The notes below the pieces were generated by a model. That model saw nothing but the letters and a program-made list of their open reading frames with translations, made no database searches and was not told the origin of the DNA. Positions 23,164 to 45,500 of a stretch of 64,000 bases of DNA are shown here, piece by piece. The stretch's first letter is position 1. Every line of letters begins with the position of its first letter. The DNA is from a bacterium (lineage in GTDB: Bacteria; Zhuqueibacterota; Zhuqueibacteria; Zhuqueibacterales; Zhuqueibacteraceae). The position numbers and the translations under genes were made by a program. The stretch lies in the NCBI GenBank assembly GCA_044869275.1, contig JBIOXB010000014.1:1-64000 (forward strand). The letters run 5' to 3'.

Positions 23164-23267
23164 GAAATCACTCCACTGAAATAAAACTTGAGAATAAATG
23201 CCATAACGCCTATTTTGCGCTGTCGCCACAAAAGGTCTTGTTTCATCCTCCACTTCCGGACGGTGTT

Positions 23268-24980
23268 ATGCGCTGCAAAAAATGCCAGGCCGAAAACCCC
23301 ACGCGCTTTCAGCACTGTGGCGAATGCGGCGCGCCGCTGTATCTCGCGGTGCTGAAAGAGATCAATGAAAAACCCGAGATCGTGGCGCACTACGTTTTCG
23401 CCTCCGGCGCGACCCTCGGCCGGCACTACGACAACTCCATCGTTTTGCTCGATCCTTCGCTGTCACGCTATCACGCCCGCATCGATTATCAGGATGGACG
23501 CTTTTTCATCCAGGATTTGAGCAGCAGCAACGGCGTGCTGGTCAACGACGTCAAAGTCACACGGCGCGAGATCAAAGACTACGACCGCCTCGCGCTGGGC
23601 AAGATCATGCTGCTGTTTCGCACCTCCAGCCTGCTGGAGTTTGAAAAAGAGCGGATGCTGCCCACGCAGGATCGCTTTCTCGCGGCGATACAAAACATCA
23701 ATCAAAACGCCAAAAGCGCGGCGCTCTCCAATCGCGTGCTCGAAATCGCCGCGGAATTCGCGATTACGCTCACGCGCGCTGAGCGCGCCATCATCTTCTT
23801 GTATGACGAAAACCTCAAGCTGCGCCCCGCGGTCTGCCACAACCTCGCGCCCAAGGAACTGGCGCATGACGAATTCGAAGTGAGCCTGTCCGCGATAGCC
23901 GAAGCCGAAAGCAACGGCGAAATGCTCATGCGCGAGCAATTGCTCGACGATCCGCGCTTCGACGCGCAGCAAAGCATTCAGGCCCTGCGCTTAAACACCA
24001 TCATTTGCCTGCCCTTGAAATCGCCGCACGTGGTCGATATTTCCACGACGCAGGACGCGGGCACGGAACGGCTGTATGCCAAGGGCGTGCTCTTCGGCAT
24101 GCTCTATCTCGACAGCCGCCGGCCGTTGAAAGGCCTGCCACAGCATCGCCAAACCATGCTGCAGGTGCTCGCGGATCAAACTTCGCTCGCCATCGAAAAC
24201 GCGATTCTGCAGCGCGAGATGGAGGAGAAAAAAAATCTCAAACAGCAAATGCGCGCGGCCAAAGCCTTGCAGCAGCGCCTGTTTCCGGCGGCGAGCTTTG
24301 CGCACGAAAAATTCGAGATGGCGAATCACTATGCCCCCGCGCAGCAAATCGGCGGCGATTATCTCGCCTTTTTGCCGCTGGGCGATTCCCGTTTTGCGAT
24401 CGCCATCGGCGACGTGGTCGGCAAGGGCTTGCCGGCGGGATTGGTGGTGATGACGCTGCACGGCGGCTTGTACGCCGAAATCGCACATCAAGACGACGCG
24501 CTCGCCTTGCTGCGCAATCTTGACCGTCTGGTTTATGAATACGCCGAGGGCAAGGTCTTTGTGACATTCTTCCTGGGCATACTTGACGTGGAAAAAATGA
24601 CGCTGACCTATGCCAGTGCGGGACACAACCCTCCGCTTGTATATCGCGCCACGAAGCAAGAATGGCATGAATTGCGCGCCGCCGGAATCCCCTTGGGGCT
24701 CGATCCGGAAACGGAGCGCGGCAAGGGGACGATTCAACTGCAGGCAGGCGACGTGCTGACTTTTTACACCGACGGCATCACCGAAGCGCGCAACGCTCAC
24801 AACAAACAGTTTGGGGTGGAGGGCCTAAAAAAAGTGGTCAGTCATTGGCAGGCCGCGCAAAAGCGCGAAACGCAAACGCTGGGCGCGCTGATCAATGCCC
24901 TGCTTGAGCGCGTGCGTAATTTCGCAAAGCACCACACCTTGGAAGACGACACCACCATCATGGTGGTGGCGATCAAATAG
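23268..24980 (+). CDS. Zinc-ribbon/FHA/GAF/SpoIIE(PP2C) serine phosphatase, RsbU-like
   Basis: CKKC..CGEC; FHA GR..S..H..SSNG; GAF ICLPL..GMLYLDS; PP2C GGDY, GDVVGKG, YTDGITEA, EDDTT. Confidence 0.9.
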   Translation: MRCKKCQAENPTRFQHCGECGAPLYLAVLKEINEKPEIVAHYVFASGATLGRHYDNSIVLLDPSLSRYHARIDYQDGRFFIQDLSSSNGVLVNDVKVTRREIKDYDRLALGKIMLLFRTSSLLEFEKERMLPTQDRFLAAIQNINQNAKSAALSNRVLEIAAEFAITLTRAERAIIFLYDENLKLRPAVCHNLAPKELAHDEFEVSLSAIAEAESNGEMLMREQLLDDPRFDAQQSIQALRLNTIICLPLKSPHVVDISTTQDAGTERLYAKGVLFGMLYLDSRRPLKGLPQHRQTMLQVLADQTSLAIENAILQREMEEKKNLKQQMRAAKALQQRLFPAASFAHEKFEMANHYAPAQQIGGDYLAFLPLGDSRFAIAIGDVVGKGLPAGLVVMTLHGGLYAEIAHQDDALALLRNLDRLVYEYAEGKVFVTFFLGILDVEKMTLTYASAGHNPPLVYRATKQEWHELRAAGIPLGLDPETERGKGTIQLQAGDVLTFYTDGITEARNAHNKQFGVEGLKKVVSHWQAAQKRETQTLGALINALLERVRNFAKHHTLEDDTTIMVVAIK

Positions 24981-26541: not shown

Positions 26542-27222
26542 CTACATACGCTGCTTATAGAACTCGATGCGCTTGTCTTTGGAATCCAGGCCCAATTCCT
26601 TGAGCCGGCGGCGCACATCGAACCAGCCCATGCGATAGTTGCCGTAACGCGGCGTGGCCAGGAGCTGCTTGATCTTGAAGGTGCCGGCCTCGGGATTCTC
26701 GGCAACGATCGTGCGGATGTAATCCTCGAGGCCTTGTGCGGTTTTGTTTTTCGTGCCCGATACTTGTTCGGCCACGGCGGCGCGCGTGGCAGTCTTCACC
26801 ATAACGCCGTCGTCGCTGGCGGCTGCAGACGGTTTTCCGCTCGCGGGTTTCCGAGGCAGGCTGCTGCCCCTGTCGAAATCTTGCAGCGCCTCCTCGATCG
26901 TGTCGAAAGCCTTCAAGATGTAATGGAATTCGAGCAATTCGAAGACTTCATAAACATCCGGGATCATGCGCACCAGCTTGAGGTCGCCGCCTTTTTCGCG
27001 AATACCTTTGATCTCGCTGATGAAAATACCCCATCCCGCGCTGCTGATATAATCAACGTTGCCGAGGTCGATGATAATGTCGTACGTGCCCGCTTTCAAA
27101 AGCCCGTCCAGCGCATGCTCCAATTCAGCAGACGTGGTCGTGTCGATATAACCGCCTACTTTGATGATGGCGATATGGTGATTGACACCGGCTCTTTCCA
27201 CGGACACTTGAATACCTTCCAT
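26542..27222 (-). CDS. STAS anti-sigma antagonist fused via a linker to an HTH-like C-terminal domain
   Basis: GYIDTTT, IIDLGNVDYISSAGWG STAS motifs; low-complexity linker; C-term NPEAGTFKIKQLL...L.ELGLDS..KR; AGGAG RBS. Confidence 0.88.
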   Translation of the reverse strand: MEGIQVSVERAGVNHHIAIIKVGGYIDTTTSAELEHALDGLLKAGTYDIIIDLGNVDYISSAGWGIFISEIKGIREKGGDLKLVRMIPDVYEVFELLEFHYILKAFDTIEEALQDFDRGSSLPRKPASGKPSAAASDDGVMVKTATRAAVAEQVSGTKNKTAQGLEDYIRTIVAENPEAGTFKIKQLLATPRYGNYRMGWFDVRRRLKELGLDSKDKRIEFYKQRM

Positions 27223-27266: not shown

Positions 27267-27295
27267 AATATAAAGGAATGGTCACCAAAAGTCAA
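27267..27295 (-). promoter_or_regulatory. Sigma70-type promoter for the STAS-HTH gene
   Basis: Minus strand TTGACT-N17-TATATT, about 45 nt upstream of ATG 27222. Confidence 0.6.
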
Positions 27296-27432: not shown

Positions 27433-30400
27433 CTACGCCGTGACGGCGCGCTTCATCATCATGCGGCCGGCCAGCTCGATTTTCCGGCGAATATCGTCGC
27501 GGCTGGAGTCGATTTCCAGCACGCGCTGCCATTCTTTCATGGCCTCCATATATTCCCCACGATTGGCGTAAATGACCCCGATGTTCTCGTAGGCGGTGGT
27601 GTCGGAGGCGTCCAATTGTTTGACGCGCTGGTAGGCGCGCGCCGCCTCCTCGTACATGCGGTTGCGAAAATAGGCATTTCCCAAAATGCTATGCGCCTCC
27701 TTGAAATTGGGAAACAGCACGATGGCGCGCTCGAATTCGCGGATCGCTTCTTCAAACTGCTGCGCCCGGTAAAATCGCAAGCCCGCGATCAGCAATTGTT
27801 CGCGCTCGTCTTCGCTCGGTTCCGTGTGTCCCTGCTCTTTCGGTGGCAAAATCATGGCGGTGGTGTGCAGGCTTTGCGGCACGTCTGTGGTTGCTTCCTT
27901 GCCGTTGCCATTGAAATCGGGCGATCCGGCTGCCGGTCGCGCCAATTCCTCGCCGGCAAACGTTTCGCCCACCGCGGCCGCGGCCGTCAAATCCGGATCC
28001 TCTTCCAGCGGAACCGCAAGATTCTCAGTTCCCGCGTAGGTCATGAGTTCATCCAACTCCACAAAAGGCAATCCCACCTCGCCCTCGTGTTGTCTGCGAT
28101 CTTCCGGAGCTCCCTCGGCCTCCTCCGCTGTTTTGGAATCGGCGCCGGTCAAGTGCTCGCGCTCCAAGGTCTGATCCTCCCGCACCGGCAGCGCCTCGCC
28201 GGGGAGTGCACCGCTAAAAGAAAAATCGATTTCGCGGCGCAACAAATCATCCACCGCCGAAAAATCCTCGTCGCTTTTATGCCGCTCTTCGCCGCCCTGA
28301 AAAACTGAGAGCGCGCTCCCTTCTTCCTTTTGCAGTTCTGCAATCGACGCTGATGCCGGCGGCGAAGATTCGGCTGCGGGTGTTTCCGGATTCGCACTGG
28401 GGCGCTGCCCGTGAAACTCTTCCAACATCGTTCCCCCCGCAAACAAGTCTTCAAAACTGATCCCCACGGTATCCGTGTGAGAGACCGGGCGCACGACAGG
28501 TGGATTGCCGGCGCTGCGAATCTTCTCTTTGTCCAAAACTCGGGACGGCCCTTGCTCACGTGGCGGCGGGGACGCCGGTGTGTCAGGTGGAAGGGCTTCC
28601 TCACTTGCCAGCAATTCCTCGATCGGCGTAAACAGAGAAACGGTTTCAACCTCCGGCGTCGTTTCTTTCTTTTTGTGAACGACACGCGCTTCCGGAGCCT
28701 CACGCGCCGCCGGTGGCGCGGGGGGCGCTGCCGGCCTTTCTTTGCTCTCTTTTTTTGCCGGGGGAATGGCAGGCGGAGCCGGCGGCGGCATGGGCCGCGG
28801 CGGTTTTGCCGCGGACTCGAAGGCTCTCGAACGGTCCAAAATGACTTCACCGGACAGCGTGAGCAAGGGTGTGCCGGGCGGTTTCATCGGGCGCTTGGTG
28901 CGGCCACCGCGCGCGACAAAGCCTTCGCGCAATTGCCGGGTGTTCAGCCGGTTGCGCACCAACTCGTCGTAGATTTTGTTTTCCGGAATGAGAGTAGAGC
29001 CGTAAGCTTCGGTATTGAGCTCTTCACTGATGCGCTTCGCGCCGTATTCGGGATGGTTCTTGATGATGTCGAAAATCTTGACTTTGTCCTCGATCGCGAT
29101 GTGCTTGGCCTCCACCTCGATCTCCGCATCGACCTCGACGCTCTCCACGCCTCTTTCTTCGAATTCCTTTTTGTACTTGTTGTAATAAGCGTAGGTCGTG
29201 ATGCCCACCAACTCGCAGGCTTCGCGGATGCTTTTGCCTCCGACAATGAATTGGTGCGCCTGTTTCGCGCGCTGCAACTCCACCTTTTCGGGCGAGGTTT
29301 TTTCTTTGATGGCAACGAGTGTGATGTCGTCGGATTGCATTTCGCCGGCGGTGAACGAGAGAATCTCGTCTTTGATCTTCTCCACAAACGGCTTCACGCG
29401 CAGAACGCCGTTCTCGCGGATAATCTTCAGCAGGCGCTCTTCGCCGAACAGGTCGCGCTGCGCGTTCATCGCTTCGGTAATGCCGTCCGTATAAATGAAA
29501 AGAATGTCATCCTCCGCCAGCTGAATGGTGTCGCTTTCGATCGATTTACGGAACAATTCGTCGTCGGGCAGGCGAATGCCGACGGGAAACCCGCGCGGAT
29601 TCAGGTAATAAGTCTTCTTCGAGCTCGGGCGATAGAGAATCATGGGGTTGTGGCCGGCGCTGGCATAATTCAGGCGGCGGCGCTTGCTGTCGATGATGAC
29701 GTAAAAAAGGGTGACGAACATGCCCCTTTTCATGTCATCGATGACGGTCTTGTTCACGCGCGCCAGCACTTCCGCGGCGTCTTTCACGCCCCGTGCTTCG
29801 GTGCGCAGCGCCTGGCGTATCATGGTCATCACCAAACTGCCGGGTACGCCTTTGCCGGAAACGTCTGCGACCACCACGCCGAGCGTGTCTTTGTCCACTT
29901 CCACGAAATCATAATAATCGCCGCCGACTTCGCGCGCCGCCTCATAATGGCTCGCGAGCTCGTAGCCGTCCAATTCCGGAAACTCACGCGGCAGCAGGGT
30001 TTGCTGAATCTCCTGCGCCACCTGCATTTCCTTTTGCAGGCGCTCCTGGTCGGCCAGGCTTTTTTGTGATTCGCGGAACTTGCTGGTGATCTCGGAAAAC
30101 GCCTGGGCGATTTCGCCGATTTCGGTGGAGGAGTCGATGTCCATCTCGTCGCCCATTTCGCCGTGGTCGGCGAGGCGCACCCATTCGGCCAGGCGATGCA
30201 ACGGCGTCATCAGGATATAAACCAAAGCGAACGCGCCGACGCAGCCCAACAAAATCACCGAGGCCGCCACGCGTGCGTATTCCCAGCGCACCGCGGCGAT
30301 GCGGTCATCCACATAAGCCTTGTAGGCGCGGATGTGCAGCGTGCGCTCTTCCGGCGGATCGCCGCGCGTTTGCAGCTTGGTGATCACGTCGTAAACTTCG

Positions 30401-31332
30401 AAGCGCGTCGTTTGCTCGTCCGGGCCTTTGTGCTCGACTTCATACAACGAGGTATTTTTATCGATCTTTTGCTTCTCGGATACGGCGGCGGCAAATTTGC
30501 CAAAAAAAAGTTCCTGATTGTTGTGTCCGACGATGTTGCCCAGCGGATCCACCAGCGCGATTTCGTACAACAATTCCTGGCGGTCCTTGTAAGCGTCGTG
30601 CAGCAGCTTGCAAATCTCATTGCCCAAAAAGTCGTTCAACAGGGCAGGATTGTATTCCAGGTTGCGCGTGACTTCGGCATCGACACTGCGCAAGGAAGTC
30701 AGCAATCTATTGAATTCGGTTTCCTTGGCCTCGTAATGAAAATACAAATACCCCACTGCGACGAGGGCGATCAACGCCAGACACGTACGCACCCAGTATT
30801 TCGCTTTGAGCGAGAAGGGGATCGCTTTGACTGCGGACTTGAAGACGGGAATGCCGAAGAAGGACTTTTTGGGGCTGACCGTCTCGAAGCTTTTGGTCAT
30901 GCGCAGCTCATTGCCCTCTTCCGTGCGGCGATAGTCGATCTCGTCCATGAGCTTGCGCATCATGAAAATGCCCAAGCCGCCCTTTTTGCCAATTTGCACG
31001 TAGCGCTGCAAGTCCGGGTCTTGCACGCGGCGGGGGTCGAAGAACTTGCCTTGATCGATCAGGCAGATGGTGAGGCTTTGCTTGCGAATCAGCGCGCGAA
31101 TGGTGATGAAGCCTTCGCCGCCGGCCTCGCGATAAGCGTGGCGCATGAGATTGGTGCTGGCTTCATCCACGGCCAGCTTGAAAGCATTGACGACCTTGTC
31201 GGGGAAGGTATATTTCCTGCCGATGCGCACGACGAAATCGCGCATATCCACCAGGTGATCGGTGTGGGCAGGAACCTTGAGTTCTTCTTTTATGATTTGT
31301 TTGAACAACTCGCTACTCCGCGACCGCGCCAA
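27433..31332 (-). CDS. Membrane-bound bifunctional partner-switching regulator: RsbW-type HATPase kinase, TM, extracytoplasmic domain, TM, HAMP, SpoIIE PP2C, tandem HTH, disordered linker, TPR
   Basis: LAVDEASTNLMRHAY, DQG, GGLGIF; two hydrophobic helices; EIGEIAQAF HAMP; GGDYYD, ADVSGKG, YTDGITEA, SDDIT; C-terminal TPRs; TTG start. Confidence 0.88.
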   Translation of the reverse strand: MARSRSSELFKQIIKEELKVPAHTDHLVDMRDFVVRIGRKYTFPDKVVNAFKLAVDEASTNLMRHAYREAGGEGFITIRALIRKQSLTICLIDQGKFFDPRRVQDPDLQRYVQIGKKGGLGIFMMRKLMDEIDYRRTEEGNELRMTKSFETVSPKKSFFGIPVFKSAVKAIPFSLKAKYWVRTCLALIALVAVGYLYFHYEAKETEFNRLLTSLRSVDAEVTRNLEYNPALLNDFLGNEICKLLHDAYKDRQELLYEIALVDPLGNIVGHNNQELFFGKFAAAVSEKQKIDKNTSLYEVEHKGPDEQTTRFEVYDVITKLQTRGDPPEERTLHIRAYKAYVDDRIAAVRWEYARVAASVILLGCVGAFALVYILMTPLHRLAEWVRLADHGEMGDEMDIDSSTEIGEIAQAFSEITSKFRESQKSLADQERLQKEMQVAQEIQQTLLPREFPELDGYELASHYEAAREVGGDYYDFVEVDKDTLGVVVADVSGKGVPGSLVMTMIRQALRTEARGVKDAAEVLARVNKTVIDDMKRGMFVTLFYVIIDSKRRRLNYASAGHNPMILYRPSSKKTYYLNPRGFPVGIRLPDDELFRKSIESDTIQLAEDDILFIYTDGITEAMNAQRDLFGEERLLKIIRENGVLRVKPFVEKIKDEILSFTAGEMQSDDITLVAIKEKTSPEKVELQRAKQAHQFIVGGKSIREACELVGITTYAYYNKYKKEFEERGVESVEVDAEIEVEAKHIAIEDKVKIFDIIKNHPEYGAKRISEELNTEAYGSTLIPENKIYDELVRNRLNTRQLREGFVARGGRTKRPMKPPGTPLLTLSGEVILDRSRAFESAAKPPRPMPPPAPPAIPPAKKESKERPAAPPAPPAAREAPEARVVHKKKETTPEVETVSLFTPIEELLASEEALPPDTPASPPPREQGPSRVLDKEKIRSAGNPPVVRPVSHTDTVGISFEDLFAGGTMLEEFHGQRPSANPETPAAESSPPASASIAELQKEEGSALSVFQGGEERHKSDEDFSAVDDLLRREIDFSFSGALPGEALPVREDQTLEREHLTGADSKTAEEAEGAPEDRRQHEGEVGLPFVELDELMTYAGTENLAVPLEEDPDLTAAAAVGETFAGEELARPAAGSPDFNGNGKEATTDVPQSLHTTAMILPPKEQGHTEPSEDEREQLLIAGLRFYRAQQFEEAIREFERAIVLFPNFKEAHSILGNAYFRNRMYEEAARAYQRVKQLDASDTTAYENIGVIYANRGEYMEAMKEWQRVLEIDSSRDDIRRKIELAGRMMMKRAVTA

Positions 31333-31585: not shown

Positions 31586-33592
31586 CTACTTCCGGTTCAG
31601 CTTGTCACGTGCTTGATCGATCGCGTCGAGAATGTATTTGTTAAAGCGATCTTCCGTCTGAATCTCTTCGAGAATCTTCAGGGCCGCAGCGTAGTTTCCG
31701 CCCTGGCTCAAGCGCGCGGCTTCGGTGAAGCGCTGGCGCAATTTTTCCGTGGCGAATTCTTTGACTTTCGCGTTTAGGCGCGACTCGGCATCAAAGATGT
31801 AACGCTTCGCCAGCGGATTGCCCGGATCCGTCTTCAACACCTCTTGGAAGGAGCTGACCGCCGAGCGATAATCCCGGCTGTTATAATATTGCACGCCCTG
31901 CGTGACCAAATCCTTCACATTCAATTGTGTTTGCAATTTGGCCACCAAGTTGGTGATTTCGTTTTTCTGGCTGGCGCTCAGACTGCCGTCGCTCAAGGCG
32001 CGGTTGTAAAGCTGCACCGCTTCGCTCAACTTGCCCTGTGCCTCCAGGCTGCGCGCGCGCTTGAGCAAGTCGGTGACTCGACCATCGAGTTCGCGCTGCG
32101 TTTCGTTGATCAATTCCTTCAAGCGTGGATTGTTGGGCGCGCGGTTCAAACCGATCTGCCATTCGCGAATGGCTTCGCGGTAATCGCCGGCGGTGAAATA
32201 GTCCATACCGCTTTTGATTTGCGCGGCCACGGCCAAGCTGTCCAATTCGCGTGTCTTTTTGGCCGCGGCAATCTTTTCCAGTTCTTTTTCCTTCAAGCGT
32301 TGCTCTTCCGCGAGCTTCTCTTCGGATTTTCCGGCCCACTTGCGCGCGTCTTCATCGCCGGGGAAGATGCGGCTGGCCTCGGTATAGCGCAGCTGCGCCT
32401 GGAAATATTCACGGCGTTGAAAGTACTCGTTGCCATCTTCCATGGCCTTGGCAAAATCCGCTTGATTCTGCAAATGCAATTGGCGCTTGACTTGATTTTC
32501 GGCGCGATCCTGTTCTTTGCGGCGCTCGGCCTCGATCAGCTCGGTTTTGGTTTTGCCGAGCTGCATGGTGATGCTGATGCGATGCGGCGCGTTCAGGCCC
32601 TCGGTGCCGTTGACATCATTGGAGTAGTTTGCCATGGCGTAGTCAATGGTGAAGTTCTGATACGTCACGCCGGCGCCAAAGCTGAACACCTGGCCGTTAC
32701 TCCCCAGGCGCAGCATGGCGCGGTTTTGATACACATACTCGGCGCCAAATTGCAGGCGGCTGGGCGTGCCTTCCACGCTGTTTTTGAAATTGAACAGCAG
32801 ATTCACCACGTCCGCGCCGTCGCCCAGATGCACGGGTTTGGCAAGCGAAGCGCGAAACGTGCGCGGTGGAATATCGGTTTCCGTGTCCAGACGCAAACGC
32901 GGCTCGATCAGATTTTGTATGGCCACACCCAGGGACAAATCCTGCCAAATGCCTTCGCCCAGGTGTGGGCGGTAAATAAATCCCAAGTCAAACGATACGC
33001 CCGTGGCCGCGTCAATATCCGTAAACGTCTGGCGATCATATTTGATCGTCCCCCCCACGGACAGGGCGAAAGGAAATTCCTTGGCGTATGAAATCAAAAA
33101 CTGATCCTGGCCGAAAGTGGCAATGCCGGTTTCCTGGCTGGTCAAGTCTCTGCCCTGCACATCACCGACGTCCCAATGCAGCCAGGCCACGCCAAAAGTG
33201 CCCACGCGCAGGCTCGGATGCGCATAGCCGACATAGTTGTATTTCGCGCCGGCCATCAAGGGCGCATAGAACAAGGTGACATTCTTGCGCTGCAGCAATT
33301 CCAAACCGGCAGCATTCCAAAATATCGTCGTGGCATCGACCGGCATGGCAATCGTAGCGCCGCCCAATCCAATGGATCGCGCACCCGCGCCCAATGCGAA
33401 GATGGATTCCCGGCCGGCAGTTTGCGCCTGCCCGGTATGCGGCAGCAAATGGAGGAAACTGCACATCAAGCCAAAGACGATTGCGTGCCAGCCCAGCGCA
33501 CGGCGTTTGGCTTTGGAATTGCCCCGCGCATCAGCCTTGCCTTGCATTCTTTTCATTTCATCACCTGAGGATTGCAATGCTCGTGCTTTCAT
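31586..33592 (-). CDS. PorV/PorQ-family outer-membrane beta-barrel fused to a coiled-coil/TPR region
   Basis: ALGAGARSIGLGGA...DATTIFWNAAGL PorV-like N-motif; amphipathic strands ending IDYA..HRIS; multiple TPRs; ATG overlaps giant gene stop (TAATG); alternative start 33556. Confidence 0.8.
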   Translation of the reverse strand: MKARALQSSGDEMKRMQGKADARGNSKAKRRALGWHAIVFGLMCSFLHLLPHTGQAQTAGRESIFALGAGARSIGLGGATIAMPVDATTIFWNAAGLELLQRKNVTLFYAPLMAGAKYNYVGYAHPSLRVGTFGVAWLHWDVGDVQGRDLTSQETGIATFGQDQFLISYAKEFPFALSVGGTIKYDRQTFTDIDAATGVSFDLGFIYRPHLGEGIWQDLSLGVAIQNLIEPRLRLDTETDIPPRTFRASLAKPVHLGDGADVVNLLFNFKNSVEGTPSRLQFGAEYVYQNRAMLRLGSNGQVFSFGAGVTYQNFTIDYAMANYSNDVNGTEGLNAPHRISITMQLGKTKTELIEAERRKEQDRAENQVKRQLHLQNQADFAKAMEDGNEYFQRREYFQAQLRYTEASRIFPGDEDARKWAGKSEEKLAEEQRLKEKELEKIAAAKKTRELDSLAVAAQIKSGMDYFTAGDYREAIREWQIGLNRAPNNPRLKELINETQRELDGRVTDLLKRARSLEAQGKLSEAVQLYNRALSDGSLSASQKNEITNLVAKLQTQLNVKDLVTQGVQYYNSRDYRSAVSSFQEVLKTDPGNPLAKRYIFDAESRLNAKVKEFATEKLRQRFTEAARLSQGGNYAAALKILEEIQTEDRFNKYILDAIDQARDKLNRK

Positions 33593-36500
33593 TACTTCAC
33601 CACCGCGACTTTGGTCGTGACCGTGCCAGCGCTGGTCTTCAACACGGCCATATAGACGCCATTGAAAACCAGATCGCCATTGCCGTTCCTGCCGTCCCAT
33701 TCGATGAAGCCCTGGCTCACCCCGTTGGTGCGCGCGCCGGCTTTGCCCTGGGGATCGGTCGATTTGAAGGACTTGGTATAAACCAATTCTCCCAGCAGGG
33801 TAAAGATGCGGAAATCCACCTCGGAGTCCTGCGGCAGGGAGTAGTTGAACGTCGTCCGGCCGTTGCGCACCGTGGAGAACGGGTTCGGATAATTGTAGAA
33901 TGAATCTTCGTAATTGGCGCTCGACAGCACCGCGGCCACGGAAGTGATCGTGCCGCCCGCGAGATTGACCTGCACCTGCTTTGACGGTGAGTCCGCGTTT
34001 TCTGCAATAATATCGTTGCCGCTGCGCACCGTCAGGAAGAAATCATCGGCGGTCGCGGCATTGGCCACGTCAACCAAAATCGTGGCTTGCTTCGAAGCGC
34101 CGCCGAAAACCGTGTCGATGATCGCGAAGTTGAGCGTCAGCGGATTCGTATTCGGAATCTCTGTCAGTTGCCCGAGCACCTTGTTCGGATCATCGCCGGC
34201 CACCACTTGCACGCGCGCGACCGCCGCGTTGGGCGGCAGGTCCTGGTTTTGACTATTGACGACGTAAAACTTCAGAGTTTTCATCACGATATTGCTGGAG
34301 CCTTCATTGCCTTCGTTGCGCCAATCCAGTGCCAGCACGGGAATGCCCTTCTGCTGGCTGATCACCGGTCCGGCTTTAATGCCCTGGCTCGCGCTGATAT
34401 CGGTCACCGTCAAGATCGTCTCTTCGGTGCGGATGTTCAGAGTCCTTTCCACGACGCTCGCCGGTGCTTCATCACCCGTGTTCCTGTCGTTGGGATAAGG
34501 CTTATTCAACGTCAGCGTGATCACCTCCGCAACCACGGAGGGGGTGTTGCGCGCCGTGACCTGCCATCTGGCTTGGCTGTTAATCGTGGTTTTGGCCAAC
34601 GGTTCGGCGGTGGTGTACCCGGCCGGCAAAACCAGGTTGATACTCCCGGCGCCCACGGTATCTGCCTCGCCTCGATTTTCCAAGATTGCCGTGATTTCGA
34701 ACGGCTGCCCGATGCTGGCAACATTATCCAATGCTACCGATTGCGGATATGTAATGGAGGCGGACAAGAACAAGTCTGCGCTTTCGACGATGTCAACCAC
34801 CAAATTCGACGAGATGGAGCTCACTTCGCTGCCGCTGTTGGCATCCTTGCCAGTGACGGTGACGTAAATCTGTTGCTGCGACAGCCGGTTACGCGGCGCC
34901 CGCATCTGCCAAACACGCGAGGTTTCGACGTCCAAGCTGTCAAACCTTTGGATTCTGTCCGCTTCATTGACAAAACTGAACCCTGCTGGCACAACCAGTT
35001 CTGCGCGCAACGTCGTCAGATTGCGCCCTTTAATCAGGGCACGAACTCTGAATTCTTGTTGCGTGCTCAACGTATTGTCCGCTGCCCCAGCCGGCTCGTA
35101 AATATAGAGTTGATCTACAAATAAAGTGCCAACCGAGTCCGTGCGCACGGCTTTGTTGATGACAGAATTGTCAATTCCGCGATTCCATACTGCCGGGCCG
35201 CCACTATTCTCATCATTCAACCGATTCAGCAATTGCACAGTCAGTATGCTTTCCGGTGTCGGTATGGGTGGCGCTTGCGCAATCCATTCCACCACGCCAG
35301 AGCTACCACTTGAGATGTAGATTTTCTTCTCCAGGTCGTCTGTGGTAGTAACACCAGTTTCACCCAATTGCAGACGAACGGTGGCAGTGTCAACCGCGGC
35401 AGCCACACCCTGGTTAGCCAAAGTCGCCCGAATCGTGAACGTCTGATCGACAGTCAATGCGCCGGTCGTATCCTGGCCCGGCTTGATAAGCTTGACAGAA
35501 AAATCAAGCGTGGCTTGCTGGACGGCTTGAACACGCACGGTGTCGCTGTTCGTCACTGGTACACCTGTGCCATTCTCGGTGACTCCTTCAGCCTTGATGA
35601 TAAACGAGCGTGTATCCACCGGTGCACCCGGCACTAGTATCTCCCAGCTTTCTTGCGCGGAGAAATCAAAAATCGTGGCTGACGAACCGGATCTGAACTC
35701 GTATCCAGTGTTGGAGGGCAAAGTCAACGTGATTTTCTTTTGTGCCAAGTCTTTGCTGAAAGCCAGGGAAGATTCAATCTTGAAAGTCTGGCCGGTGGAG
35801 ACCACGCCGTCCTTCGCGCCTTCGGGGTCGATAATGACGGATTTACTGATATTCAAATTTGAGAACACGACGTTCACCAAAGCACTATCGGCGGACTTCG
35901 CTACTATCGCGCTTGCGGCACTATTCAGATCCCTGGGCACCGTGGTCATATTCACAGCCAGTGGGCCTGCGGTAGCGGAATCCGGTGCCTGTAGCCTCCA
36001 CACCACTCTCTGACCCGGGTTGAATGGCTGTTCCATGCCGGGATCGAGGATGGTGAATCCGCTGCCTTCCGGCAGGCTGAGGGTGAGGCGGCCGGATTGA
36101 TCCACCTCGGCAGCATTCGGAAGGTTACTTACTTCGGCGTTCAGCTCAAATATCTGATTCGTGGTCAGATTATTGAAATCAGCATTGACCTCAAGCGCCA
36201 GCTCTGCCGGCAATTGGATGCGGACTTGCGCCGTGGTATCGGCGCCGCGATTGATGTTCGCACGGCCGCCGCTGATGGCCGCGGTGGCATCCAGAACTCG
36301 CGCGACGAAATTTTCCGGCTGATTGTCCGGAGTTGCCGCGGCGATTACCTCAAATCTGATCTGGCGCTGTTGTCGTTGCGGCAGAGAAACAATGGTTTGC
36401 TGCTGCGCTGGAATGTGCGAGCTGTTGGTGCTGGAAACCAGTTCGACCAGGACGTCTCTCACGTCTTCCAGACTGCTGTTTTCAACTTCGACTTCGATGG

Positions 36501-39500
36501 CAAAATTCTGATTGGTATTGACGGAGCCGACGTTCGAGTTTTGGAAGAAATGATTCACGATCGGCCGCGTGAAGGTGATTTTCACCGAGGCGATGGTTTC
36601 GATTCTGACTTCCCCATTCTTCTCTGCGCTCAAGGCCAAATTATTATTTCGATCCTTGCCCGCGATCAGAGCGTGAATCGTGGCCGCGCCGCCGCGCCGG
36701 CCGGTATTATCCACGCGATACAGCAACGTGTCAATCTCCCCGCCGGGCAAAATCAAATTGCCGTTGCGCGAGAGAAACGCAGGAGGCACGATGGTGTAAT
36801 CGTTCTGCTGCGCTCCGTCAATCGTGATGGTGAGATTATCGTCGATAGGCGGATTGAGCGCAATGGCCGCGCCGCCGTTGTTGCGCAGCACCACGGGAAT
36901 CGTCCAGGGATTGTTCGACTCGGCCGGCACCACTGCAGCAGAAGGATTGACGCTCACAATTGCCAGCTCGGCACGCCGCTGCACGATCACGTCTTCGGTG
37001 TTATCGACGGGCTGCTCTTGTTGCGCCGTCGTGCGGGTATTGTGCGCCTTGGCTGAAATAATCGTGGCGGTGAATCTTTCACCGTTGTTTTCCTGGTTGC
37101 TCGCCATCACGGCAAAAACTACGCTTTGGGGTGAGCCGGAGGAAACGCTGGGTATGAGCTTGTCGCTGGGAGGATTGATCGTAGAACTGCCGTTGGAAGA
37201 CAGCCGGACGATCACGCTGTCCGCCGCCTCCCCGCCGCGGTTTTCAACTTCCACTCGCACTTCAAAGGGCTGGCCGATGTTCACGCGCGGAGCATTCGGC
37301 GCGGAAGCCGGCACGATCGCCGTGCTGGTGAGGCGCAAGCTCGCCGCGGTCTGTACGGTGACGAAGCTGCTACCGCCGCTTTGTGTATCGTCCGAACGAG
37401 GATCGTCGCTATTCACCTCGATGGCGCCAATTTGGCCTGTGATGTTGTTCTGGCCCACTTGCGAGCCGGTTTGCGCGATCTCGAATCTCAGCGTACGCTC
37501 GCTGTTGCCCGCAATGATGTCGCCGCCCCCCACCAATGCCGTCGGCTGAGGCATGAAATAGCCTGCGTTCGGTGAAAAAGTGAGGCGAGTCACCGCTTGG
37601 TCAAATGACACGCGTACACCGCTGCCGCCGTTGTTCCTCACCAGCATGTCAACCGACCACACTTGCGTTTGGTTCACGGTCACGGTTTGCTGCGAGGGAG
37701 TCAACGAAACGATGTTCAGCGCCGCCCGCGATTGTACCTCGAAGCTGCCGTTGTTGCCGCTGCTCCGCGCCTCAAGCTTTTGATTGTTGGAGAGATCGAC
37801 GACGCGAATATAGCCCTCTACCGTGGTGCCTCCGATTTTCTCGCCAGTCTTGCGAATCTCAAAACGCAATGAATCACGGGCCCCAGCGGCCAAATTGGTA
37901 TTGTTGGAGCCCAAAAATCTGCTAGGTGTTACAACATCAAAATCTCTGGTGACATCTCCGCCATTCAACAATCGCAAGCCCACGCTATCGAGCTGCGCGG
38001 GAGAATTGCCGTTGTTGGCCACGGTCATCACGATGCTCCAGGGCTTTAACATCCCGGCGGTGACCTTGGTCTGCGTGGAATGCATGCTGATCACCTGCAA
38101 GTTCGCCGGCGCGGTGACGCGCAATTCATTGCTCGCAAAAGTGACGTCGGAAGAGTAATTGTTGCCGTTGTGCGCGCCGCGCAACTGGAGCGTCGGCGCG
38201 TAAGCAGTCTGCGGCATGTTCACCGGAATGTTCTCTCCCACGAAGGTTAACGTGGTATCGCCCGGTGGAATGCTTCTCACCTTGTTAAGATCCAGATCGG
38301 CGCTGAAAGTGACGCCGCTGCCGAACACAAATCTCGTGGGCGTGGGAGTCGCCGTCAAATCCAAGGTGGCGGTGCCGCTGTTGCGCACGCGAACTCTGAA
38401 AGCGTATTGCGTGCCGTTGTTGACGGTTTTCGGGGTGAGGCTGTTGGGAATGTAAGTCACGTTGGGTGACGTTTGCACCGTTACGGATGAGCCATTATTG
38501 GTCGCAACGCGCGAAGCGCTGCTATTGAGCTCCGTCGCCGCCACTTTAGCCCAAATGAATGCCAGGCCGGGGGCAGTGCCCGTCGTGTTCACGGAGAAGC
38601 GCAAGCTGTCCGTGGTATTGCCGGCTAAATTCAACGAGCCCGTGCCCAGCCAGCTCGGCTGCACCAGGCTCGAGGCATAGCCGGATTGAAAAGCATTGCC
38701 GATACGGAAGCGCACGTTCGTGGAGGTATCCACTTTCACGCTGACCGTGCTGCCGCCTTGATTGCGCACCACCAGTGTAATCTGCCAGGGATTGGTCTGC
38801 TCGGCCGTAACCGAGGGCCGCGAGGCGCGCACCTGTTGGATGACGAGATCGGCCGGGGTCTGCGACTCAATCGGCGTGCTCACCGGCGCAGAGGCGATTG
38901 GCGGGCCGCTGGGATTGTTGTAATCCGTGCCTTTGAGGCGCAGCGAAACTGGCAGCGAGCCGATTTGGTTGCCGCTGCGCGTGACGGTGACTCTCAGGGC
39001 TTTCACTTCATTCGCCGCGATAATCGAATCGCCATCGAGAAATGCCGTGGGATAGCTGAAGTTAAAAGCCGGGTCGCTGCCCACGGTCACTCGGGTGGAA
39101 TCCGTCGAGTAACGAACCGCGCTCTGGCCGGTATTGGTAACGTTCGCGGTGATGGTCCATGGCGAGGTTTGGTTCCGTGTGATGGTGGTTTGCGAGAATT
39201 GCAAAGCGCCACTAATATCCAGCGTACCGCGCATCTGCACCGTCACTTCACCCGAACCACTGTCATTGGTGTTGTCGGATAGGGGCTGGCCCGCGCCGTC
39301 CGTGCCCGCGACAAAGCCGACGATAGTGGCCCTGCCGGCACTAAGACCGGTTTGCGTAATGCGGAACGTCAAAGCGCCAGTAGCATTGCCCGGCAAAACC
39401 GTGCCGCCGCCGTCCAATGCCGTGGGATGTTGAATGCCATACTGCGAAGTCAAATCAACAGCGCCGATGATGAAATGGATAAGCGTCTTGTCCTGAGCGA

Positions 39501-42500
39501 GACTCAGATTTACCGGCGAGTCGGCAGAGTTTTGTAATTCCATGCGCACGGTCCACGGACGCGTCATGTTCGCGGTGACGCTGGGCTGCGAGACCGTGAT
39601 TTGCGTGATACCGAAGGCATTGCCCGGAATGACGGTCCAGCTATCGGGGGTGGTGGCGCCGTTCAAATCATGGGCAGAGGCGCCGGAGTTGGCATCATGG
39701 CCATAGGCTTCGGCGTCGATCACAATGTCGCCCAGCACTGCACCGGTGCGCACATTGACCACGAAACTAAAATCCGCCGTGCCGTTGCCGGAAATACTCC
39801 CAGGATTGTTACTGTTGGGGATGACGGCGTATCCGATCGATTGATCGACCGCGCCCTGACGGAAGCGCAAACGAACGCTGTCGATCACGGCGTCGGCGGA
39901 AAACTGCACGCCCGAATTGTTCGCCACAGTCACGTTGACCGCAATGCCGTTTTGCCCGCCCGCCACGGTCGTGGGCGCAGTGTTCACGATTTGCACCGCA
40001 AGCTGTGCCGGGCGTAGCACCTGCCACGTATCCGTGGCGTTCGCGCCGAGATCATTGACCGGAGTGCCATTCACGGTGCCTGAGATGTCACCATCGATAG
40101 TGATCATCTCGAGAGCCGCGTTATTGCCAACGGCAACGTTGAAATTCAGATTAACCGTGCCATTACCTGCAATAGTTGTGGGGTTATTTGCCGCCGGTGT
40201 CACGATGTAATCCGTGTTGCGGGGCTGCGTGCCGGTAAAAGTCAAGCCGCCTTGCAAAGCTTGGATCGGCGTGGTGCCCAAATTCTGCACGGACATGCTC
40301 ACACTGGCGCCGGTTTGGCCGCGCGTGACAAAAGAAGGCACGGCAACAATCTGTATAATGCTCAAGCTGCCCAGATTAATCGTCGTGCTGCCAGTCGCGC
40401 CTAAACCACTGTTCACACCGATGGTGGCGACACCGCCAGCAATGCCGGCGCGGAAGGTAAAGCTCAAGCGGCTCTGGGCATTGGTTTGAATCTGCTTTCC
40501 CGGCGTCACCGGATCGACGTCCGGGTCTGTAATCTCACCTGAGGCTGGAGGTGTTACCGCCACGGTAAAACGGCGATTGGGACCGACTTCATTATTATCC
40601 GCATCGCGAATGACCGAACTGATCACAATGGCGGTGGCTGTGCCATTCGCCGGCAGACTGTTCGGATTAGGCGTCAAATCCACCGTGCCGCTGGGATTGC
40701 CGGGCCGAACCGTGATTTGGCCGGTGGCATCCGAAATAACGCCGCCGGTATAAGTTCCGACGATCGTCCCATTCACGGAGCCGTTCGCCGCTCCCAGAGA
40801 AGGCGAAAATGTGAGCGAGGAGCCGGTCGCGCTCACGGCCGGAGAGAGGTTGCCGGTGTTCGACCAGGTGACATTCACGTCGCCAAGAAAATTGTTGCCG
40901 GCGTCATAACCTGCGGCATGAATTGTAACCGCGGAATCCGTGGTCATGTTATACACGCCAAAAACCTCGCCGCCGCGATTGGCGGCGGTGCGCAACTCGA
41001 CTCTCGCCACCACGCCGCTCACCACCGTGATCGTGCCGCTGTTGCCATCGATCACCGTGGCAGTCGGGTGATTGGCGCGAATGGATCCGCTGCCGATCGT
41101 CCCGGCGGTAAAGACGGTTGAGAGGCCATTGGCATTATTGACGGTGCCCATGCTGCCATCGACCGCCCAACCCACGATTTCATCGCCTCTGTAGTTGTTC
41201 TCGGCATCAAAGCCACCGGCGTGAACCGTGAGTTGCTGGCCGGGATTCATCGTGATATCGCCTTGCGGCGCGGTGGCGCCGGTACCGCCGGACAGCACTA
41301 CGACGCGATGCAGCGGGCCGACCGTGATGTTGATCGTACCCGTGGTGTCAAAACCTGCCGCGGCATGCGTGGCGCGAATCGTGCCATTCGCCGGCGCGAG
41401 CGTGGGCTGAAAGGTGAAGTTGGTGACGCCTGTGGCAGTGACCACTGGAGCCAGCGTGCCGGCGCTGCTCCAGTTCACGGCTTCGTCGCGAATGTAATTG
41501 CCGTCGAAATCAAAACCGGCGGCGTAAAGGCGCAGCTCCTGAATGGCACTCAGGGATTTATTGCCCAGCTCGGCACCCTGACCGCCGGGGTTCTCAAAAA
41601 CTTTAATGTAAGAAAGCTGGCCGGGATTGACGGTGATGATGCCGGTCAAATCACTCCCCGCCGAGGCATGATCCGCGCGAATCTGGCCGCGTCCGGTTTT
41701 TGTCGGGTTGAAAGTCGTGCTGGTGCCGCTCAATGGAGAAACGCCGCCAATGGGGTCACCCGTGATCGTCCAATTCACCGTGACGTCATTCTTATAATTA
41801 TTATCCGCGTCAAAACCGCCGGCGTGCACGGTAAACGATTCGTCCGTGGTCACGGAGCGCTCGTCCACCGGAAGCAGATTGCCGGCATCGCCGGTGAGAA
41901 TGGTGAGGTGATGCAAATTGCCCGTGATCACCGTAATCACGCCGCTGGAATCGTCGCGCGCCGAGACATGGTTCGCCACGAGGCGCGCCGCGCCGGGCCG
42001 TGTCAAGGTCAAATTGGTCGAAGCGCCGTTCGTGGGATTCAAAGCGCCGATGGCTTCACCCAAGATGCTCCAATCCACCGTTTGATCGCCGAGGTAATTG
42101 TTCTGCGCATCATAACCGGCGGCATGGACTTGAACCAGGTCGTCTGTGGTCCGGGACAGGTTGCCAAGCTCAGAGCCCTGGCCGGCGGGCCCAAGCACGA
42201 CCTTTACGTAGCTCAAATTGCCGCTCTGCACCGTGATCGTGCCGGTGGCGTCATCGTCCAATGAGGCGTGGTTCGCCGTGATCACACCCGAACCGGCAGT
42301 TGTGGCCGTAAAGCGCGTGCCGATGCCGGTCGTCGGAATGAGGGTGCCGATTGGAGTGCTCAGTTCCCACGTCACGCTAACGTCTGTAATGCGATTATTG
42401 TCGCGATCAAAACTGCTGGCGTGCATATCCAGGGGAGGATCGCCTGTGACCAAAGTTGCGTTGTTGACTTCACTGCCATTGCCGGAGAGGCCGGCCAGAA

Positions 42501-45500
42501 TTTTCACGCGCACCGGTGCACCCACCGCAACCGTAAACAGGTTTGTGCTGTCGTCCAGTGCCGTGGCATGATTCGCCACGATGCGGCCCGAACCCGGCAC
42601 TTGCGGGTCAAACTCCGTCGAAACATTGATCGCGGGTGAGACCACGCCGATGCCGTTGCGCGCGATCCACGTCACCGTGTAATCGCCGAGATAATTATTT
42701 GAGGCATCGTAACCGGCCGCGTGCAACGTGAGCTGGCCGTCGGTGGTGAGATTTCTGCCGGTGAAGCGCGTGCCGTCGCCGCTGCTGCCTTCCACAATAC
42801 GCACGCGGAAGAGATTGCCGCTCGATACCGTGATCGTGCCCGTGAAGCCATCGATCAAAGTGGGATGATCGGCATTGATCACCCCGGTGCCGGCAGTCGA
42901 GGCCGTGAGGCGGGTGGTCACGCCGTTATTCTGTGACAGTGAACCGATATTGCCGGTAACGTTCCAGCTCACGGACACGTCTTGCATATAGTTGCCATCT
43001 GCATCAAAGCTCGCCGCATGCACGTCCTGGGTCTGGCCAGTGGTCAGATTCAGCGTGGTAATCTCACCGATATTGCCGGAGGTGCCGGTCAAAACTTTCA
43101 CACGATACCCTGCGCCGGGATTGACCGTGATCACACCCGAGCTGTCGTCAATGGCCGAGGCATGATTCGCGACAATTCTACCCGTACCGGTGGTGTTGGC
43201 GTAAAACGTGGTCGAGGCGGCATTCGTGGCCGGATCGAAGATCCCGATGTTGGCGGTGATCTGTGCGACCAGCCAATTCACGTTTTGATCGCCGGTGTAA
43301 TTGCCGAATGCGTCATAACCCGCGGCATGCACCGCCAGGATCTGATCCGCGGTCAAAGTCTTCGTGGCCAGCTCTGCCGGCGCGTCGCCGCTGCTGCCTT
43401 CCACCACCTTGACGCGCTGCAAGGGTCCGGCAATCACGTTGAATTGGTTGGACTGGCCGCTCTTACCGCCGCCACTAACGTTGAGAAACACCCCGTCCTG
43501 TTTTTTCGTGAGGCGCGCATTATTGACCGTTACCACGGTGCCGTTCATCGCCACGCTCGACGGCGTCAATGTGCTCGTGGCATCGCCCAACGCAACCGTG
43601 CCGTTGAAATTGACGTCGTTGCCGCTGGCGTCTTTAGCCGTGATCGTAAAACTGAAATTCGTGCCCGCTTGTTGCGTGGGAATGGTGCTGAACACGAAAT
43701 GATCCAGGCCCGAGGCGCTGACGTTGAAACTGGTGGAGTTGCCGCTGTGACCCGCGCCATCCGTGACATTGATGATGCGACTGCTGCCCGTCGCCGCAAT
43801 GGTGACACTTACCGTGCGCACGCCGGCGCTGAAGGCACCGCTGGTTGAGGGCGTAATCGTGCCGGAATTCAAGGAAATCGTGACCGCTCCGCTGAAACCG
43901 GTCACGGTATTGTCGAATTGGTCTTGCGCCGTTATTGTAATCGGGAAGCTTTGCCCGGCAATTTGATCTGCAACCGTGGAAATGGCGAATTTGCTCAACG
44001 CCGCCGGGGCGACATTGAAAGTGTTCGATGGGTTGGTTTTGCCCAAGCCGGTGACCGTGAGGCGATTGCTCGTGAAGCTTTTGGTAATGGTGAAATTCTG
44101 TGTCAGAATCCCGGCGGTAAAATTGTTGCTGGTGGCGGGCGCAATCGAGCTGCTCAAATCGGAAAGCGACACGGTGCCGGTAAAATTCGTGACCGTGTTG
44201 TTGCTGGCATCTTTCGCCGTAACCGTGATATTGAATTGCACACCCGCGGTTTGATTGCCGATGGTGCTGATTTCAAAATGATCCACGGTCTGCGCCTGCA
44301 CGTTGAAGGCGTTCGAATTGCCGCTTCTCACCGGCGAGCCACCGCTCACGCTGATGATATTGGCCGTGCGCGCCTGAGTGATGGTGACACCTTCCGTGCG
44401 CACACCGCCAATGAATGTGCCGCTGGCAGCGGGGGCGATGGTGCCGGTCAGGTCCGAAATCGTCACCGTGCCGGTGAAATCGGTTTTGAGATTGTTTTGT
44501 GCGTCGCGCGCACGCATGGTGACACTGAACGGCGCACCCGTGGCCTGGTCGGATATCATGTCCAGCGTGAAGCCATTCAACGCGCCGGGATTGACATTGA
44601 ACAAATTCGAGGTGCCGCTGCGGGCCGGCGCGCCGCCGGTTGCCGTGAGCTGATTATCGTTGCGGGTGAGATTTACGGTCACGTTTTGCGAGGCCAGCAC
44701 GCCGCCCGACAAAGACGCGCTGGTGACGCTGATGCCAGTCAAATCCGTTATCGTCACCGTTTGGTTGAAATTGGCGACAGTGTTATTGAACGCATCCTGC
44801 GCCACGACGCGAATCGCGAAGGTCGTGCCCGCGGTTTGCGCGCCGATATTGGCGTCGCTCGTATTCGTCACTCGGAAATGATCCAGCAGCGCGTGCGTCA
44901 CTGTAAAGCTGCTGCTCTGAGCGGTTTTACCGCTGCCACTGGCAAAAATCACGACATTATTCTGCGCCCGGGTAATGCGCGCATTATTAATCGTCACTGC
45001 AGATTGATTGCTGAACACCAACGGCGAGGCCGTCAAAGTGTTCGTGTTGTCACTCAGAGTCACCGTACCGGAATGCGGGATATTGTTGTTGTTGGCATCC
45101 TGTGCCGTCACGGTCACGCTGAAATTTTGCCCGGCAATTTGATTGCCGACCGCGGCGATCACGAAATGATCCAGTGCGCCGGCATTGACATTGAACACAT
45201 TCGACTGTCCGGCCTTGCCGGCGCTGGCGATCGTGATCCTCGTGCTTGTGGCCGGCTGCGTGAAAGTCACCGTCTCCGCGCGCATGCCTCCGGCAAACGC
45301 CCCGCTGGTGGCAGGCCCCACCGTGCCCACAGTGGCGCCGATCGTGGCCGTGCCATTGAAACCGGTGACGGTGTTGTTCAAGGTATCCTGTGCCGTGAAG
45401 GTGACCGGAAAGCCGGTGCCGGCAGTCTGGGGCGTCGCAATGTTCGAAACCGCAAAATGATGCAGTGCGTTTGGATTCACCGTGAACACATTAGTGCTGC

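Follow-up and report, generated by a model that had tools for sequence, protein, structure and literature searches.

The window analysed here is the 64,000-nt stretch at the start of contig JBIOXB010000014.1 from a member of the Zhuqueibacterota (assembly GCA_044869275.1). It encodes a membrane sensor with kinase and phosphatase domains, in which a tandem helix-turn-helix (HTH) module related to the N-terminus of IS481-like transposases lies directly behind a PP2C domain. Capture of this module from a transposase appears to be the most economical reading, and is highly probable. The second HTH of the module, here termed D2, is also carried by STAS proteins that are putative substrates of the sensor, which the initial annotation of the window had missed. 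Sensor and STAS proteins form a conserved, transposase-related variant of the partner switch, not found described in the literature searched. As to function, we tentatively favour, with slightly less than even confidence, a module of transposase origin that may now serve the sensor for protein contact, the likely output being the HTH borne by the STAS proteins.

Location and structure of the tandem HTH module

The segment at 28905–29280 (minus strand) corresponds to aa 685–809 of an unbroken open reading frame (ORF) and directly follows the PP2C domain; the peptides highlighted by the initial annotation are present there. The features of the module and its surroundings are as follows.

27433..31332, minus strand: host gene, an unbroken ORF of 1299 aa counted from the first TTG
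29305..30045, minus strand: PP2C/SpoIIE phosphatase domain (aa 481–676 by Pfam; PF07228, E 1e-49)
29146..29283, minus strand: HTH1, the first helix-turn-helix (aa 684–729), from profile matches, structure model and transposase alignment
29098..29145, minus strand: inter-HTH linker (aa 730–745), acidic here and basic in transposases; predicted local distance difference test score (pLDDT) <50
28903..29097, minus strand: D2 (aa 746–810), second HTH and fourth helix, the part common to the STAS proteins, from profiles and conservation
28837..28902, minus strand: basic, Pro-containing conserved tail (aa 811–832; 61% mean identity), the first part of which can still be aligned to the stretch of the transposase immediately ahead of the catalytic core

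The IS481-type pattern of two N-terminal HTHs that had been proposed was borne out by the NCBIfam IS481 profile (NF033577), positions 2–112 of 284 of which match aa 688–801 (E 4.7e-5 with the whole protein, 1.1e-6 with the segment), with IS3 ranking lower. An orthologue from the other class of the phylum, outside the window's own, matches the same profile at E 1.4e-16. Pfam matches to a 147-aa segment were weak, none reaching its cut-off, but came in the order predicted: in the first half HTH_23 (E 0.004) and HTH_28 (E 0.018), in the second half HTH_21 (E 0.024) and across the join HTH_32 (E 0.16). All four recur in 22–25 of 32 orthologue segments, and other-class orthologues (ORFs of 1076–1230 aa) pass the HTH_32 cut-off (up to 37.7 vs 33.7 bits).

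An AlphaFold2 model of the module, for which one alignment row comes from the unpublished genome G001, has three helices, a low-confidence linker and four helices (mean pLDDT 80). The best Foldseek matches of this model, TnsB (E 0.5) and Pax5 (E 0.6), were not significant; VIA fold comparison gave SETMAR (Z 5.6, root mean square deviation (rmsd) 3.5, 57 aligned) and Tc3 (Z 5.2, rmsd 9.0, 101 aligned), and the weak fold matches as a whole include Pax5, Pax6, Tc3, SETMAR, TnsB and IstA. The Pax paired domain is itself linked to transposase DNA-binding domains. A PDB sequence search with the module profile returned antibody and acetyltransferase noise only.

Relationship to IS481-like transposases

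A profile search of 1.84 billion representatives with the module gave 832 matches at E <=0.001, the best 150 of which were listed. Among the matches listed, a PP2C tail is directly N-terminal to the module in 83 of the 137 that were classified, and 22 of the 57 scanned by Pfam are GT2 glycosyltransferases with a duplicated module. The GT2 proteins (within P0236-P0291, e.g. P0256) are 560–2950 aa long and carry two copies of the tandem HTH module at the N-terminus, strongly basic at +14 per module; one is labelled Patescibacteria. A further match, P0287, is one of a family of proteins 329 aa in length that carry rve and HTH_32 domains (P0294-P0412). This family is large and uniform (2053 matches, of which 120 were listed), with source labels of Thermoleophilaceae and Solirubrobacteraceae among the matches listed. 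It is IS481-like and not certified IS481: IS481 is its best family, but the five members tested score 175–197 bits against an NCBIfam cut-off of 224.

The window segment and one 329-aa transposase share 27% identity over 122 aa (pairwise BLASTP E 1e-13). The rve core of the transposase is intact, with D159, D226 and E262. The profile alignment starts at transposase residues 2–4, and the BLASTP alignment ends at residue 142, 17 residues ahead of the first catalytic Asp (159). In the reverse search, a profile of 103 of the 329-aa transposases, run against 55,164 ORFs of the genome, had the host protein as its top match (E 5e-10), followed by a STAS-D2 protein (E 0.005). Homology is thus seen in both directions, because the module profile finds transposases and the transposase profile finds the host protein first. 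In a PDB search with the 329-aa transposase, the 60 matches listed were weak integrase-core rows, with none for the N-terminus.

As aligned, the module has the boundaries of a transposase N-terminus without the catalytic core. The initial annotation had seen no DDE/rve core, and this extends well beyond the window: the rve motif was found in 0 of 90 full-length orthologues, and the genome (94% complete) gave no rve match. Inverted repeats within 28600–29600, scored without a shuffle control, are only short imperfect pairs (10–21 nt, 71–90%), all inside the ORF; any ancient element ends would have decayed. The tandem module occurs once in the genome, and tblastn of the segment against plasmids gave a best E of 0.9. 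On this sequence evidence the module is not an IS481 element: it has no DDE core and, being present in one copy with a fixed STAS neighbour, appears not to be mobile.

A quick tree (81 rows, IS630 outgroup) placed all PP2C modules in one clade (support 92), sister to the 329-aa family (95). The careful tree, of 60 rows after removal of 21 that included near-duplicates and two very long branches, again had the PP2C clade (96/93). Two results weigh against a simple capture from the 329-aa family: support for that family as sister is only 80/78 in the careful tree, and the log-likelihood is 7.9 units higher for a tree in which all non-transposase modules (PP2C and GT2-type) are grouped together (approximately unbiased test, p 0.68). 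The donor and the number of captures are not fixed by the trees. The direction, from transposase to host, is inferred because of the module boundaries, and the tree test did not settle it.

A different origin, improbable in our view and bearing on ancestry alone, is that the module belongs to an old host domain family sharing an ancestor with IS481 transposases, or that a single capture was followed by shuffling onto PP2C, STAS and GT2 proteins, in either case without direct capture from the 329-aa family. The joint PP2C and GT2-type clade, which is not rejected and scores above the free tree, speaks for this, as does the choice of the 329-aa family as the top transposase match of the module's own profile, which biases the comparison. 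Such an origin is harder to square with a match that begins at the first residues of the transposase and stops just before the first catalytic Asp, or with scores of 54–73 bits per module for the 329-aa family (n=120 listed) against <=53 for any single duplicated module. In both free trees (IS630 root) the sensor modules also fall within IS481-like sequences, though deep nodes are weakly supported.

Conservation and selection

The segment was found in 58 of 61 related genomes at 50–94% identity with no stop inside, in line with the intact reading frame noted in the window. The D2 profile matches 166 of 167 genomes of the phylum (105 of 105 good-quality ones), mostly three times each; these genome tallies take in two unpublished genomes, G001 and G014. 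Homologues are labelled KSB1/Zhuqueibacterota and Calditrichota, and the source labels found among 20 more distant kinase–PP2C–module fusions that were looked up are Spirochaetota, Eisenbacteria and Krumholzibacteriota. In 89 full-length orthologues, average identity with the window protein amounts to 77% in PP2C, 71% in D2, 65% in the kinase, 58% in HTH1 and 17% in the poorly conserved periplasmic part. The junction of PP2C and module is conserved and of fixed length, and both HTHs and their spacing are retained in nearly all orthologues.

Pooled ratios of non-synonymous to synonymous substitution (dN/dS), a check put forward by the initial annotation, are 0.13 for D2, 0.13 for PP2C, 0.24 for HTH1 and 0.18 for the whole module; they come from the 23 of 4005 pairs past the saturation filter (25 sequences, non-independent, dS about 0.8–1.5), with no window pair among them. 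The module is conserved under apparent purifying selection. That it is a neutral leftover of an insertion sequence, as its resemblance to a transposase N-terminus might suggest, is almost certainly wrong, being contradicted by its intact state in 58 of the 61 relatives, by its dN/dS and by the better conservation of D2 than of the kinase domain. Since homology, absence of the core and purifying selection were all observed, neither a missing profile match nor a lack of conservation can be held against the proposed co-option.

D2 on STAS proteins and paralogous sensors

The gene downstream of the sensor and its promoter are as follows.

26542..27222, minus strand: STAS1, an anti-anti-sigma-type STAS protein (STAS E 1e-17) with a C-terminal D2 (aa ~165–222, window ~26557–26730; D2 profile E 2e-14)
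27267..27295, minus strand: sigma-70-type STAS1 promoter, -35 and -10 boxes with a 17-nt spacer (conserved motif)

STAS1 is the probable substrate of the sensor. A STAS-D2 gene follows the sensor gene in 66 of the 70 loci with enough flank, and no partner gene other than STAS1 was found conserved beside the sensor. The STAS1 promoter motif is present in 69 of 80 orthologous intergenic regions, against 0–5 in 20 shuffles. The model of STAS1 D2 has four helices (pLDDT 82) and no strand by DSSP; VIA ranks winged HTHs highest for it (ArgR, Z 5.9, rmsd 2.9, 59 aligned), and fold searches gave no significant match. When the sensor module and STAS1 D2 were modelled as a complex (88-row alignment each), the score was 0.00 in two runs, a result used neither for nor against binding.

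D2 also ends two further STAS proteins of the genome, on contigs C79 and C123. Of the 29 SpoIIE matches of the genome, 1 thus carries D2, as do 3 of its 16 STAS matches. The genome also has 10 strong RsbW-like and 46 strong sigma-54 activator matches; a search for SigB/F/G gave no match above cut-off. There are usually two STAS-D2 proteins per genome, and three in that of the window. STAS2 (G000:C79:19453-20172; L047 5406-6176) has a glycogen-synthase-like gene on one side and a wza-wzc-epimerase-sugar transferase cluster on the other. STAS3 (G000:C123:14149-16101; L027 1-1728) is about 600 aa long with a long low-complexity middle, and the third helix of its D2 is the most transposase-like of the genome's four D2 copies.

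Upstream of STAS2 there is a sigma-54-type box in 27 of 29 loci (shuffles 0–1), and in 17 of 29 a conserved direct/inverted repeat about 100–140 nt further upstream. This repeat fits a sigma-54 activator site more simply, because the genome has so many strong activator matches. The STAS2-wza gap is short and unconserved, and the region 5' of the sensor is mostly coding, with top words that look like coding signal.

Of 141 representative matches among those listed, 7 (P0201, P0216, P0194, P0197, P0200, P0215 and P0218) combine the sensor with STAS domains, with one D2 per chain. P0201 has three STAS domains by Pfam and P0216 is labelled Krumholzibacteriota. Two other STAS proteins of about 385 aa (P0273 and P0285) have two D2 copies with a charged coiled-coil-like stretch between them. 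Long paralogous sensors (L028-L032, 1262–1993 aa) lack HTH1 and keep a drifted D2 in 5 of 5. The kinase G2 motif searched for was likewise not found in any of the five, which are possibly kinase-dead. D2 looks like the functional core, because of its copies on STAS proteins, the single D2 per fused chain and the loss of HTH1 with retention of D2 in the paralogues.

Charge and DNA binding

In domains of this kind, a basic linker and third helix make the DNA contacts. The mean net charge of the whole module is +15 in six of the 329-aa transposases, +11 in eight other IS481-like proteins, +6.7 in 23 other PP2C fusions, +1.6 in eight sensors of the other class and -2.4 in ten of the window's own class. 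The linker has a net charge of -6 in the window, with group means of -5.5 (own class), -2.5, -0.3 and +3.3 (329-aa transposases). For D2 the values are +0.8 on sensors (88), +6.0 on STAS1 (88), +8.7 on STAS2 (29) and +7.9 in transposases (94). In the third helix of sensor D2, Glu is invariant (88/88) where transposases have Val, and the adjacent majority residue is Asp where transposases have Arg. The recognition helices of the window module are near neutral (+1 and 0), while its fourth helix and tail are basic (+2).

Charge therefore leans against DNA binding by the sensor module and for DNA binding by STAS D2. The initial annotation had proposed a co-opted transposase DNA-binding module; the homology, the absence of the core and the conservation are upheld, while retained DNA binding is the part against which charge leans (linker -6 vs +3.3).

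Architecture and neighbourhood of the host protein

The database copy of the host protein has 1291 aa, and the true start is probably 8 codons downstream of the first TTG. The domain order is RsbW-like kinase, transmembrane helix (TM) 1, periplasmic sensor, TM2, HAMP, PP2C, transposase-like module, low-complexity region and tetratricopeptide repeats (TPRs). The features outside PP2C and the module are as follows.

30892..31272, minus strand: RsbW/SpoIIAB-type Ser kinase domain (aa 21–147; HATPase_c_2, E 3e-28, Pfam)
30208..30795, minus strand: two probable membrane helices (aa ~180–198 and ~354–375) flanking the periplasmic domain, from hydropathy and sequence
27478..27807, minus strand: C-terminal TPR repeats (Pfam), preceded by an unconserved low-complexity region of ~340 aa

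The kinase N-box, G1 and G2 motifs are present in 88, 90 and 90 of 90 full-length orthologues, and the four PP2C catalytic motifs in 90, 90, 90 and 85 of them. The helix at ~354–375 is supported by a hydropathy scan; that at ~180–198 is below the scan threshold and was read from sequence. The topology predicted from Pfam domains and hydropathy would put the transposase-like module in the cytoplasm.

Genes around the sensor locus include a TPR/PorP-like gene, a gene for a 4219-aa surface protein and isocitrate dehydrogenase, with no immune operon adjacent. The first two lie 5' of the sensor gene (window 31586-46251, minus strand) and encode a TPR protein of 704 aa, weakly similar to PorP/UPF0164, and the repeat-rich surface protein, the C-terminus of which resembles a type IX secretion signal. 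A second PP2C protein of the neighbourhood (window 23238-24980, plus strand) has the order zinc ribbon-FHA-GAF-SpoIIE and lacks the module.

Proposed mechanism and alternatives

In the mechanism that we tentatively favour, a membrane sensor would at an early date have acquired, in frame after its PP2C domain, the N-terminal ~140 residues of an IS481-like DDE transposase, which comprise the bipartite HTH and no catalytic core. D2 would also have been added to the C-terminal end of STAS proteins, usually two in each genome. By analogy with RsbW/RsbV/RsbU and SypE/SypA, a periplasmic signal would shift the balance of kinase and phosphatase and so toggle a conserved Ser of the STAS partners. In the window's class, the sensor module may no longer grip DNA as a transposase does and may serve instead as a protein-contact surface, which would hold or mark the cognate STAS-D2 partners apart from the many paralogous switches. 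The basic D2 of the STAS proteins would be the output, to DNA or another polyanion, and the switch would work without a SigB/F-type sigma factor, as in CapK/CapS. A more specific form of this, which we regard as unlikely, has the sensor's copy as an acidic, DNA-mimicking decoy that would hold the STAS-D2 proteins until their phosphorylation state frees them as DNA-binding outputs, controlling surface-protein and exopolysaccharide genes in a sigma-free, phylum-wide system.

Several observations weigh against a contact surface with a DNA-directed output. Across 88 pairs, the charge of the module shows no co-variation with that of STAS1 D2 (Spearman -0.08, p 0.46), and motif scans found no conserved operator-like repeat around the sensor, STAS1 or the STAS2-wza gap. 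Sensors outside the phylum keep a basic module (+6.7) and the third helix of other-class HTH1 is at +3.5, so DNA binding may persist there. In addition, PPM phosphatases can pick STAS substrates via their own loops, without an extra domain, according to bioRxiv 2024.05.03.592459.

The main rival, possible but rather unlikely, is that the tandem HTH of the sensor still binds DNA, as a membrane-tethered regulator or chromosome anchor acting at promoters together with the STAS-D2 proteins. The retention of both HTHs and their spacing, the cytoplasmic position predicted from topology, the basic fourth helix and tail, the basic modules of sensors in other phyla and Atlas feature neighbours that are HTH_32/28/Tnp_1 clusters (0.94–0.95) are all consistent with this. 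They are countered in the window by the acidic linker and neutral recognition helices, by the acidic substitutions in the D2 third helix and the loss of HTH1 in all five paralogues, and by the lack of a conserved operator in the motif scans.

Alternatively, sensor and STAS proteins may use D2 on the same third partner, such as a sigma-54 activator, Wzc-type polysaccharide machinery or RNA, and not on each other. This appears improbable, given that the D2 of the sensor and that of the STAS proteins differ in charge and third helix, which is hard to square with one ligand, and that STAS1 is the sole conserved partner gene beside the sensor. It would fit the position of STAS2 at the head of the wza-wzc polysaccharide cluster, behind its sigma-54-type box, and the related duplicated modules on GT2 glycosyltransferases; SypA, the substrate of the analogous SypE, also acts downstream on polysaccharide biofilm (PMC10120452).

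More doubtful still is an intramolecular or homodimer element regulating PP2C, as a lid or dimerization helix bundle, with the STAS copies serving STAS self-association. The conserved, fixed-length junction and the constraint on D2, equal to that on PP2C, would suit such a role. The 28 other SpoIIE matches of the genome do without the module, however, and the presence of the same domain on the neighbouring substrate would be left unexplained.

Comparison with known systems

The module shares with the IS481-type N-terminus (NF033577; HTH_23/28 and HTH_32/21) its two HTHs, their spacing, the loop insertion in D2 and the fourth helix; it differs in having no DDE core, no recognizable element ends, a fixed chromosomal position, an acidic linker and acidic substitutions in the D2 third helix. 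The family description used for comparison was that of PMC10045372.

Two bacterial systems come close. SypE/SypA of Vibrio fischeri (PMC10120452) likewise has an N-terminal Ser kinase and a C-terminal Ser phosphatase in one chain, a downstream STAS substrate and a polysaccharide locus. SypE has a central REC domain, whereas the host protein has a TM-periplasmic-TM-HAMP centre, and its Pfam scan gave no REC family; SypA consists of a STAS domain alone, whereas here sensor and STAS sides both carry a transposase-type HTH. CapK/CapS (PMC13373217) resembles the present system in placing an anti-sigma-type kinase beside a STAS protein with a C-terminal HTH, and needs no sigma factor, phosphorylation controlling the STAS-HTH protein directly. 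CapK is, however, a soluble HTH-STAS-GHKL protein activated by single-stranded DNA, in contrast to a membrane protein that combines kinase and phosphatase. CapS, with its winged HTH, acts through palindromes to repress adjacent immune operons, while D2 is modelled here as four helices with no strand, although winged HTHs lead its VIA rows, and neither a palindromic operator nor an adjacent immune operon was found. The system belongs to neither SypE/SypA nor CapK/CapS.

Intact kinase, PP2C and STAS motifs are shared with RsbW/RsbV/RsbU and SpoIIAB/SpoIIAA/SpoIIE. Here, in contrast, a single membrane-spanning chain joins kinase to phosphatase, HTH modules are added and SigB/F/G lack matches above cut-off. 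Among eukaryotic captures, SETMAR and CENP-B similarly join a bipartite transposase HTH to a host enzyme or regulator; the present module differs in being bacterial, IS481-type and membrane-bound, and DNA binding may have been lost on the enzyme.

Implications

Capture of transposase DNA-binding domains by host proteins is well documented in eukaryotes. In a literature search that covered few subscription journals, no bacterial case was found of a captured transposase DNA-binding domain in a signalling enzyme, and no paper joining anti-anti-sigma factor, IS481, transposase and SpoIIE; the fusion was not found described, and none of the relevant terms was found in the phylum description (PMC11683472). 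The output of SypA is said to be unknown (PMC4517449), and for STAS proteins whose action lies downstream of the kinase, D2 is a concrete candidate for an output domain. In this phylum the apparently captured domain is present in nearly all genomes, on enzyme and substrate alike, with a graded loss of basic charge from the transposases to the window's class. With copies on both partners and such a gradient, a change of function may therefore be testable with a few purified domains.

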